Positions 6,001-9,000 of a DNA stretch of 64,000 nucleotides are shown piece after piece. Each line of letters opens with the position of its first letter. Position 1 is the stretch's first letter. The DNA lies in assembly GCF_013167455.1 (NCBI RefSeq), contig NZ_CP038328.1; one strand, given 5' to 3'. This DNA comes from Escherichia coli O157:H7 (GTDB taxonomy: Bacteria > Pseudomonadota > Gammaproteobacteria > Enterobacterales > Enterobacteriaceae). Made by a program: the position numbers.

Positions 6001-9000
6001 TCCGCGAAGTTTTTCCAGTTGTGCGACTTTATAGATCAGGAAAAACGGAATGAGGCACGACACAATGCCATATAACGGGCTTCCCAACTGAAAGAACACC
6101 AGCACCGATACACGAAACGAAACCCAAATCGTCAACGTAATGACGATAAAAGCGCAGATCGCCAGAGTCAGCACGCGTGAGTTAATTTTCTTGGTATCAA
6201 TAATTCGGCTTAACAGATTGAGAATAATGCCTTTAATGGCCTCGTGGAAACCGAGATAAATGCCAAAGAATGCGGTCAGTACGGCAAAGATATTCAGCAC
6301 CGTAGAGGTGATATGAATGATATGCCCAGGGATCACCTGCGCGGCCAGTGCCAGTGCCGAGATATTTTGTTCAAAGGCAGAAACGGCTTCTTCGTGGCTA
6401 ATTGAGAAGGTAAACGAAAAGGCAAAAAACAGTATCACCGCGATGAGCGTGATATAACTAATTCGGTGGGTACGCAGCGCGAGCCGGGTTGCCAGTACTT
6501 TATCCGCTTCCCGTTTACGATAGGCAATATTCATTGGGTTAAGTACCTGAATAAATACTGCAGAAAAGAAGCAAAATGGAATGGTAAGCAGGACATCGCG
6601 AAAAAAGACGGAGGCTTGCGGGAAGGCGGTTATATTGGCGAAATTCCAGTGCGGGATCATCGTAAAACCGAACACGACAATAATCCCTACTTTGACCACC
6701 ACCATTGGCCCAGAAATCTTAAACAGTAATCGTTCACCACCAGACGCAATCGCTACCAGTACGGCGAAAATAGCGACTTTATAAAGTAGAGATTGTGAAA
6801 GATCGGCATCGGTTAAACCGAAGGTTTTCAGGTACGAGGCGCTGTCGAAAACCACGGAGAGAGAGTAGATAAAAATCCCGTGGATAATCATCAAAAAGTA
6901 GATAACCCCGAGGAAAATTCCCCAGTTCTTCCCCAGGTAATGACTGATAATATCGGTGTAGTCATTACAGGAATCGCTTTCAGAAAGGGTTTTTAAATAA
7001 ATGTCCTGCACTACCCAGGTGGCAGGATAAGCAATGATCGCTGCGGTAATAAATACCCAAATGCCCTTCAAGCCAATTTGTACTGGCATCAGCACGGTTC
7101 CGGCACCAATCGCCATGCCTATGCATAATAAAACCCAGCCGAAGTCGTAGCGTGTAAACGGCAATTTCTGATCGTGTTTCGGTAGTGTGTTGTGCTGCAT
7201 AAAGTCCTGTCCAGAAAGAAGTCGGCCTCGCAAAAATGAATAAACCCAGTTTCTCTTGCGCAACAGGTGGAGAAGTCGAATACGCAGTATGTAAAAAATG
7301 AGGCAACAGATTCACTGGGGAGGTCGCGAGGAGGCGCAATTCTACAAAATTGCGCATTTCACTACCAGTCTGGAGTCAGCCCGGATATGAACTGCAACTA
7401 TTGCAAATTAAGAAATTAAGCTGGAAGGCATCACGCAATGAGGAAGATTGCCGAGTGCTGACAGTAAAAAGCAATCGTAAAATTAGCGGCAAGCCGGAAG
7501 GGTTCCGGTGAGGCGCAATGTTGCGGGGGCTTAATCCCTGGTGGCATTGGTTGCTGGAGAGAGAAAACCCCCGCACGTTGCAGGTATGCACCTGACAACA
7601 CCACGGGGGCTAATCTTGAACCTAGACCACTCAAGAATAGCCGCGAAACGTTGTCATTACAACACAGGCGGCTATATGACGCTCGCAGAGCTGGGCATGG
7701 CCTTCTGGCATGATTTAGCGGCTCCGGTCATTGCTGGCATTCTTGCCAGTATGATCGTGAACTGGCTGAACAAGCGGAAGTAACGTGTCATGCGGGCGTC
7801 AGGCTGCCGTAATGGCAATTTGCGCCCGGACCAGACCGCAGGGGGGAAACTCTGCGGCCTTTTTCGTGCTTACTGCGGGTAAGGCACCCAGTCGCCGCCG
7901 TTCAGGCGAACGTACGGTTTATCCTGGTATTGAATAACTACTGCATTTGAGTTCTCTGAGACCGGTGCTGTTTGTGGCAACCCACTGGTGAGTTTTTTCC
8001 AGTCAACATTGTCTTCGGTGAAAATCTTGCCATCAAGAACGCGAACCACCAGATCGGAGATAGCCAGGAAGCTGCTCGGTTGGTCGATGACAATCGGTGC
8101 CCCCTGATGTGGTGCCTTCATGCCGAAGAATTTCACCCCAACGGGGACGTCGGTGATAGACGGGCTAGGGATATCACGTAGGCCAGATACCTGCATTCTG
8201 TCGCCCTTCAGCGCGCCGCCGTGTTCCGGCACCACGACCACCATCACTTTACGACCCGATTTCTCCAGTTCAGTAAAGAAGGCGTCCAGTTCATCAAAGA
8301 ATTTCTGCGCCCGCGCTTTGTAATCCGCTGTTTTGCTGACGCCCGGATAATGGTTGCCGTCATGCAGTGGAAGCGTGTTGTAGAACGTGGCACTACGGCT
8401 GTTTTTATCTTTTTCGGTAACGTCCAGCCAGCGGTTAAGCACGGCGGTATCGTCATAAACCGGCGAACCATCAAAGCCCAGCAAAATAACCGGCAGATTT
8501 GTTTGATCCATCAATTCAGTCTGCATGCCGCCATTTTCGCGAACTTCTTTCAAAAAACCGCCGAACTGGCCGTTATGTCCCATCATCAGGTGCTGGGTAA
8601 AGCCCAGTTTCGACAGGTTATCAAACAGATAGCAGTCGTTATTTGCCGGTTGATACAGATTAGTGTGCGAAGTCTGCCCGCAGCTGGCGCGCAGTAAACG
8701 GATCGCCGCCGGGCCACTGTAGGAGGTGGCGGAGTTAAAGTTCTTGAACTCAATATCGAAATGCGACCACAGTGGATGCGACATCAACCCAGCGGCTTCT
8801 ATATCCGACCAGGAAAGCGAACAGATGTTAATCACCAGTAGTTCAAATGGCTGAGCATCAGCGGGCAGCGAAGACGGGAAGGTCGATTTACGTTTCGCCT
8901 CCGCGTTATAGAAATTATTCAGCCAGGCGTTAAGGTTCGCCGTTGTTGGCGGTGCAGTTTGTGCGGGCATATCACCCACTACCGGTGCGCCACCCGTCGC

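Follow-up and report, generated by a model that had tools for sequence, protein, structure and literature searches.

The ldrD/rdlD module of Escherichia coli has been described since 2002. In strain K-12, overproduction of LdrD is toxic, bringing rapid growth arrest and nucleoid condensation, and co-expression of RdlD relieves the toxicity (PMC4147584, PMC8309996). LdrD is a membrane-binding α-helical peptide (PMC8309996), and RdlD overlaps the 5′ untranslated region (UTR) of its message, not the ribosome-binding site (PMC4147584). Repression of LdrD synthesis by RdlD in K-12 is stated in PMC4147584 and PMC8309996; the antisense RNA inhibits translation, by a mechanism that a 2021 review calls 'currently unknown' (PMC8309996). 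A proposed leader open reading frame (ORF), ldrX, would couple LdrD translation to a site open to blocking by RdlD; reviews give this proposal as unconfirmed (PMC4147584, PMC8167048). Both RNAs are visible on Northern blots in K-12, and an RNase III product of ~21 nt arises at the ldrD/rdlD overlap (PMC7373196). Toxicity, repression and duplex formation are taken here from these K-12 papers. Further K-12 members of the family, ldrA/rdlA, ldrB/rdlB and ldrC/rdlC, lie as three tandem copies between kdsA and chaA, at a different chromosomal site from ldrD. Here we describe a stretch of 64,000 nucleotides from E. coli O157:H7 (RefSeq assembly GCF_013167455.1, contig NZ_CP038328.1), hereafter the window, and we are highly confident that, taken as a whole, the locus is best explained as a single-copy LDR-D unit, the chromosomal type I toxin–antitoxin pair ldrD/rdlD.

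To place this locus among its relatives, 30 Ldr loci from one-genome-per-species collections were aligned with the window and the four K-12 copies. The fetched loci come from Escherichia, Citrobacter, the Klebsiella oxytoca group, Kluyvera, Pseudocitrobacter and Salmonella arizonae/diarizonae, and all counts of structure and conservation below rest on a 32-sequence alignment spanning six genera.

An LdrD toxin gene and its antisense RNA

The plus-strand ORF at 7676–7783, identified by reading the sequence of 7200–8200 together with an ORF list, has 35 codons and encodes MTLAELGMAFWHDLAAPVIAGILASMIVNWLNKRK, exactly the Ldr-family peptide given in the original prediction. Pfam PF13940 (Ldr_toxin) matches it at 93.2 bits against a cut-off of 27 (E = 9.5e-27), across profile positions 1–35 of 35, and is its sole Pfam match at E up to 1. 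The solved structure PDB 5LBJ chain A ('Small toxic polypeptide LdrD') is identical at 34 of 35 residues (E = 3e-19). The Pfam score and this identity place the match far beyond chance, and the peptide carries the marks of the Ldr toxin family: a full-length profile match above the curated cut-off and the 35-residue form of the solved LdrD, one hydrophobic helix with a basic C-terminal end. The ORF is annotated as ldrD (WP_001295224.1) in an identical O157:H7 record and is the LdrD toxin gene. Its product differs from K-12 LdrD by F3L only, the window having Leu3 and K-12 having Phe3; Leu3 is the family consensus, found in every other aligned homologue, and Phe3 of K-12 is the outlier.

The length of 35 codons is kept in 32/32 aligned homologues, one of which has an internal stop. 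That copy, from Pseudocitrobacter vendiensis (L025, 1501–1605), is interrupted in frame at codon 31, and by hand reading its leader/3′ UTR pairing is mismatched at a point where compensation is seen in L028, an intact relative. The L025 copy may be in decay. An E. coli-type ldrD with 94% peptide identity was also met on a 503-nt contig labelled Bacillus sp. (L008, coverage 0.66), most likely assembly contamination rather than a Bacillus gene.

Alignment of the minus strand to rdl sequences, the check proposed with the original prediction, returned a full-length rdlD gene. Rfam RF01813 matches 7562–7627 (minus) at 89.2 bits, above the gathering score of 50 (E = 3e-19), over model positions 1–66 of 66, placing this RNA in the RdlD family, and the match recurs in a scan of the whole window. 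The antisense span first suggested, 7565–7640, came within a few bases of the 3′ end of the RNA and overshot its 5′ end by ~13 nt. The position corresponds to annotated rdlD (b4454) of MG1655, and an RdlD match lies at a constant offset from the ldr ORF in every fetched locus scanned except L020. rdlD is antisense to the ldrD 5′ UTR, its 5′ end lying 49 nt upstream of the ATG at 7676. Because RdlD is perfectly complementary to the leader 49–114 nt upstream of the start codon, the ribosome-binding site is not covered; both it and the start codon are left clear, as is characteristic of the family, and the layout is the same in MG1655. On sequence evidence, neither refuting condition attached to the original prediction applies: the peptide does align to Ldr toxins, and a full-length rdlD is present on the minus strand.

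RdlD itself is strongly structured. The free energy of its 66-nt fold is −29.5 kcal/mol (z = −4.4 relative to dinucleotide shuffles); the fold has a free 5′ tail, a long CCCCCG.../...CGGGGG stem-loop and a U-rich end, the stem-loop probably doubling as an intrinsic terminator, with a terminator-like site in the 3′ part of the RNA at 7584–7570 (minus). The leader had been described beforehand as a structured, GC-rich palindrome; the structure is borne out by the z-score, and GC-richness applies to the stem only, the RNA as a whole having 55% G+C.

A conserved unit extending beyond the toxin and antitoxin

Conservation among the 32 loci begins abruptly at a −10-like box and runs unbroken to a terminator at 7834–7866. 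From this block, with the −10 box setting the 5′ end and a terminator-like site the 3′ end, a putative ldrD mRNA of ~377 nt can be delimited at 7490–7866 (Table 1). The module had been proposed as self-contained within 7565–7783, which leaves out ~75 nt of 5′ leader and ~83 nt of 3′ UTR and terminator belonging to the conserved unit.

The candidate ldrD −10 box reads TAGAAT, TAGTAT, TAATAT or TAAAAT, mostly TAGAAT, at an equal distance in the 32 homologous loci, with an rTGa motif at the −35 position. The candidate rdlD hexamers are kept across the alignment as TTGTAA or TTGCAA and TATTCT or TATCCT, and this promoter stretch is identical between the window and K-12; they match at 8/12 positions, where the scan threshold was 9/12. 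Both promoters are listed as putative because their hexamers fall below that threshold. At the other end of the unit, the terminator helix (alignment columns 361–369/380–388) is 99% paired. Position 7835 is A in the window only, with G in K-12 and all other aligned homologues, giving an A–C mismatch at the second base pair of the ldrD terminator stem.

Table 1. Features of the ldrD/rdlD unit, with positions counted from the first nucleotide of the window
Feature	Position	Strand	Remarks
ldrD promoter, putative	7455–7483	+	−35-like GTGCTG 7455–7460, 17-nt spacer, −10 TAAAAT 7478–7483
ldrD mRNA, putative	7490–7866	+	~377 nt: 186-nt 5′ UTR, coding sequence, 83-nt 3′ UTR
5′-terminal mRNA hairpin	7493–7509	+	RNAalifold columns 4–9/15–20
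End-to-end closing helix	GGCGCA 7512–7517 with UGCGCC 7821–7826	+	6 pairs; joins 5′ end to 3′ UTR
Candidate leader ORF	7518–7595	+	25 codons in the window; only conserved upstream AUG
rdlD gene	7562–7627	−	66 nt, Rfam RF01813; 5′ end 7627, single-stranded 5′ tail, long stem-loop, UUUUCU tail
RdlD-targeted stem-loop	7569–7608	+	RNAalifold element
mRNA hairpin	7615–7635	+	CUUG/CAAG stem; loop complementary to first bases of RdlD
rdlD promoter, putative	7634–7662	−	−35 TTGTAA 7662–7657, 17-nt spacer, −10 TATTCT 7639–7634, +1 G 7627
Local helix	7637–7675	+	AUAGCCGC 7637–7644 with GCGGCUAU 7668–7675; encloses hairpin 7650–7663
ldrD coding sequence	7676–7783	+	35-aa hydrophobic toxin, KRK at C-terminal end; ATG 7676, TAA 7781–7783
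3′ UTR element	7791–7801	+	UGCGGGCGUCA; complementary to start codon region 7677–7687
3′ UTR element	7809–7818	+	GUAAUGGCAA; complementary to 7651–7660
ldrD mRNA intrinsic terminator	7834–7866	+	stem 7834–7859, then U-run; terminator-like site 7836–7857

Conserved structure of the ldrD mRNA

The putative ldrD mRNA folds at −176.7 kcal/mol, with z = −8.2 against shuffled controls. RNAalifold on the 32 sequences returned 85 pairs that are 98.6% paired, compared with 36–49% when partners were slid by 1–3 columns; ten pairs are changed on both sides, a count reached by 2/500 shuffles. In the 5′-terminal hairpin, the pair formed by columns 9 and 15 is G–C in 17 sequences and A–U in 11, a compensatory change, and the loop is hypervariable (1.45 bits). 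The closing helix that joins the two ends of the message keeps 6/6 pairs in 32/32 sequences, five of them invariant and one with a G–U variant.

Within the leader, the stem of the hairpin at 7615–7635 (columns 135–138/153–156) shows compensatory changes from U–A to C–G in four sequences and from G–C to A–U in two. Its loop (columns 139–152, ~7619–7631) has an entropy of 0.73 bits, compared with 0.14–0.28 for most of the 5′ UTR and 0.83 at third codon positions, making it one of the most variable parts of the leader; O157 and K-12 differ within it at 7620–7621. As this variable loop is where the free 5′ tail of RdlD meets the message, it is likely to be the site of first contact and of specificity, keeping paralogous ldr/rdl pairs apart.

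The bases around the start codon take part in two mutually exclusive sets of helices. One is the local helix 7637–7644/7668–7675, which lies over the bases immediately before the ldrD AUG and corresponds to a perfect inverted repeat of 8 nt (I8). This helix is 97.7% paired across the 32 sequences, and in the hairpin that it encloses, the pair formed by columns 175 and 180 is C–G in 19 and U–A in 12. The other is found in the minimum-energy fold of the window, in which the start region pairs with the 3′ UTR through 7677–7687/7791–7801 and 7651–7660/7809–7818 (inverted repeats I4 and I6); these helices are 86–97% paired, with five pairs changed on both sides. Laid on the alignment, the whole minimum-energy fold is 89% paired and has 27 pairs changed on both sides, a count reached by 0/500 shuffles. 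Conservation of both start-hiding alternatives resembles that of a switching RNA. Because the shuffle control ignores relatedness, the covariation behind the two states is supportive, not conclusive.

The ldr leader also attracts a model built for another antisense system. Rfam RF01794 (sok) gives a weak alignment over the full leader, on the strand of the mRNA and with its end at the ldr AUG, at 7525–7678 (plus). It scores 27 bits in the window and 20–36.5 bits in homologues, where the gathering score is 59. The sok model also matches L014 at 1342–1503, L004 at three sites, L026 and L022, and its best E-value, 8.5e-7, came from a 401-nt search of Klebsiella grimontii. With all scores well below 59 and the peptide matching Ldr_toxin only, membership of the ldr unit in the hok/sok family was rejected; since ldr leaders are related to one another, recurrence of the match is not independent evidence. 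The alignment hints that ldr and hok mRNAs have a common leader architecture or a remote common ancestry.

Taken together, the exclusive conserved helices and the recurring sub-threshold sok match make it conceivable, although we would lean against it, that the ldr mRNA switches between two states in the manner of hok and is distantly related to the hok leader. The 3′ UTR (7791–7818) of the complete message would then hold the start codon region 7677–7687 and the bases 7651–7660, which lie just ahead of the ribosome-binding site, the ends would be clamped through 7512–7517/7821–7826, and translation would need refolding or processing. RdlD would act on the refolded form via the variable loop.

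Proposed mode of action and competing explanations

From the identity, anatomy and conserved RNA structure of the unit, we infer a causal chain for its action. The plus strand would yield a long, stable and heavily folded mRNA (~7490–7866) with LdrD, an inner-membrane peptide of 35 residues, as its sole conserved product, and the minus strand would yield the 66-nt RdlD, from 7627 down to 7562, using its own promoter inside the ldrD leader. The mRNA would fold with its ends clamped and its start region hidden by the local anti-Shine–Dalgarno arm or by the 3′ UTR. The unpaired 5′ tail of RdlD would meet the exposed variable loop at 7619–7631, and pairing would spread to a full 66-bp duplex. This duplex would keep ribosomes from entering the leader, whether at an upstream ORF or at a standby site on which LdrD translation depends, and could also serve as an RNase III substrate. 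If the short-lived RdlD fell, LdrD would be made and enter the membrane, and growth would stop.

The leader offers several candidates for such an upstream ORF. The start at 7518 is conserved in 32/32 sequences (AUG in 29, GUG in three), with an ORF length of 11–88 codons and a varying stop. Another candidate start, UUG 7616, falls within the RdlD target; it is present in 26/32 sequences and open to the ldr AUG in 26/26, its ORF running in frame in 18, ending at a UGA overlapping the AUG in five and ending just beyond it in three.

Several points weigh against parts of this account. Among the 32 homologues, we found no leader ORF conserved as a coding unit with consistent length, stop or frame, so ldrX is neither accepted nor rejected, and the UUG 7616 ORF, with only ~17–20 mostly conserved codons, could be due to chance. 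A sigma-70 promoter scan of 7200–7950 gave no site at the 9/12 threshold; the two promoters are our own reading of weak hexamers together with their conservation, and are proposed as such. The closing helix is nearly invariant, so 7512–7517/7821–7826 contributes no covariation evidence. Finally, both RNAs are only slightly stabilised in an rnc mutant of K-12 (PMC7373196).

The last of these also bears on an alternative in which RdlD mainly destroys the message, RNase III cutting the 66-bp duplex, the ldrD mRNA decaying and the translation block being secondary. An RNase III-dependent duplex fragment of ~21 nt at the ldrD/rdlD overlap is among the most abundant captured double-stranded RNAs, and rnc mutants alone show a shorter ldrD fragment (PMC7373196). 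The full-length ldrD and rdlD RNAs, however, gain only slightly in level and half-life in the mutant (PMC7373196), reviews class Ldr/Rdl among systems that 'inhibit protein synthesis' (PMC4147584), and the cut site lies far upstream of the coding region, so that cleavage alone need not inactivate the mRNA. We therefore consider destruction of the message unlikely to be the main mode of action, and block of translation in the leader remains the preferred explanation.

Two other alternatives concern what the locus encodes. The real product might be longer, an LdrD with an N-terminal extension starting inside the RdlD target, as the ldrD frame is open upstream to GTG 7541 (80 aa) and ATG 7586 (65 aa) and the open in-frame stretch with ATG 7586 is present in both the window and K-12 ldrD. 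That in-frame AUG is nevertheless confined to LDR-D-type copies, with none in ldrA/B/C and nearly none in other genera; small indels shift the upstream frame into all three phases relative to ldr, the 35-codon ORF staying constant in length in 32/32, and the Pfam model and the solved peptide both have 35 residues. Given an unconserved upstream frame and a constant 35-codon ORF, the 65- and 80-aa forms were rejected as real products, and an extended LdrD appears extremely improbable. We give equally little credence to the idea that the window copy is a decaying relic whose toxin and antitoxin are no longer expressed. The window-only A7835, with its A–C mismatch near the base of the terminator stem, and the failure of either promoter to reach the scan threshold would fit such decay, but the ORF is intact with the consensus Leu3, two loop bases are the only differences from K-12 in the rdlD promoter region and RNA, the protein allele WP_001295224.1 is annotated in many strains, and the whole unit is under visible structural constraint.

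Genomic setting and copy number

As the original prediction had it, the module lies between yhjV and bcsG beside the cellulose genes. The 606-nt gap between them is 100% identical to E. coli O157:H7 genomes in which the ORF is annotated as ldrD between the same two genes. Its MG1655 counterpart is ~98% identical (11 substitutions across 606 nt) and is annotated with ldrD (b4453) and the non-coding RNA rdlD (b4454) in equal order, strands and spacing. Among complete E. coli genomes, 5393/5426 (99%) cover at least 80% of the gap, at 95–100% identity. An ldr module also stands directly beside bcsG in E. albertii, Citrobacter, the Klebsiella oxytoca group, Salmonella arizonae/diarizonae and one Escherichia sp. 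genome. To judge from this distribution, the yhjV–bcsG site is an old, fixed module site and no insertion hotspot.

What does vary is the number of copies. E. coli records carry one, two or three annotated Ldr genes at this site, and in several of the fetched loci the Rfam model detects rdlD in two or three tandem copies. The window and K-12 each have a single ldrD/rdlD copy, and an inter-copy junction sequence absent from the window is covered in 3296/5426 complete E. coli genomes (61%), a multi-copy fraction estimated from one junction probe only. The suggestion that the locus is a hotspot for strain variation thus fits copy number, which ranges from one to three, and does not fit presence, which is near invariant. 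In the two multi-copy strains examined, WP_001295224.1 is the allele of the bcsG-proximal copy.

Arrays in which two or three complete ldr/rdl units repeat in tandem every ~480 bp were seen in L005, L006, L016, L017 and L018 and in E. coli L035 and L036; those of L005, L006, L016, L018, L035 and L036 lie beside bcsG. Copies inside one array differ in the RdlD-facing loop. In L036 (E. coli strain 377323_2f, 1–578), a HipA-family toxin gene and not dppF adjoins yhjV, indicating that the other flank of yhjV is variable.

Elsewhere in the window, Rfam identified three further RNA features. The GadY small RNA at 42809–42922 (minus; RF00122, 150 bits) indicates an acid-fitness island, and a shuA/chuA 5′ UTR RNA thermometer at 58443–58474 (plus; RF02597, 60.1 bits, gathering score 58) implies the haem-uptake chu locus. 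The ES205 small RNA lies at 48701–48772 (minus; RF02754, 105 bits, gathering score 86).

Comparison with known systems

The feature in the window is the already known ldrD/rdlD pair, a correct but ordinary identification; as the module was described long ago and reference genomes already annotate it, nothing new is gained by its recognition. Two results may still be of use to specialists, a structural model of the mRNA drawn from several genera and the copy-number polymorphism at the site. Covariation across genera yields a model of the ldr mRNA with an end clamp, two start-hiding alternatives and a variable recognition loop. The bcsG-adjacent site is fixed across four genera, yet holds one to three copies in E. 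coli, a variation relevant to annotation and to work on toxin dosage.

Among more distant systems, Fst of RNAI–RNAII (pAD1 par) is, like LdrD, a small membrane peptide with a single helix and a basic C-terminus, and it is said to share one toxin superfamily with Ldr. According to the literature, the transcripts of Fst systems converge and interact through repeats at 5′ and 3′, unlike the ldr/rdl RNA arrangement. The window peptide scored 13.8 bits (E = 0.039) against the NCBIfam Fst model NF033608, below its cut-off of 26, and so falls outside that family. Nucleoid condensation upon overexpression has been reported for both Fst and Ldr (PMC4147584, PMC8309996).

The hok/sok system, with mok (plasmid R1 and chromosomal copies), works like ldr/rdl. 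Its toxin mRNA is, like that of ldr, stable and highly folded with a long leader; its antisense RNA is, like rdl, encoded in cis, short and unstable, with a 5′ tail directed at a hairpin loop of the leader and not at the toxin ribosome-binding site; and a leader ORF coupling translation is proposed for both (PMC4147584, PMC8167048). The 3′-end processing and the mok-like ORF of the hok/sok scheme have not been demonstrated for ldr.

Closer still, the K-12 pairs ldrA/rdlA, ldrB/rdlB and ldrC/rdlC are like the window in having a 35-aa peptide, the rdl offset and the leader and 3′ UTR helices. Their peptides are 60% identical to the window LdrD and their recognition loop differs; owing to a 1-nt indel, the upstream frame of ldrA–C ends at a UGA overlapping the ldr AUG, whereas that of the window runs in frame.

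The closest match is LDR-D of K-12 MG1655 (b4453/b4454), which the window resembles in its flanks, yhjV and bcsG, and in order, strands and spacing; in both, 48 nt separate the start codon of ldrD from the 5′ end of rdlD. From the K-12 unit the window differs most notably by F3L, by the two bases at 7620–7621 (in the loop and the RdlD 5′ tail), by a −10 box of TAAAAT for TAGAAT and by the one mismatch at the base of the terminator stem (7835).

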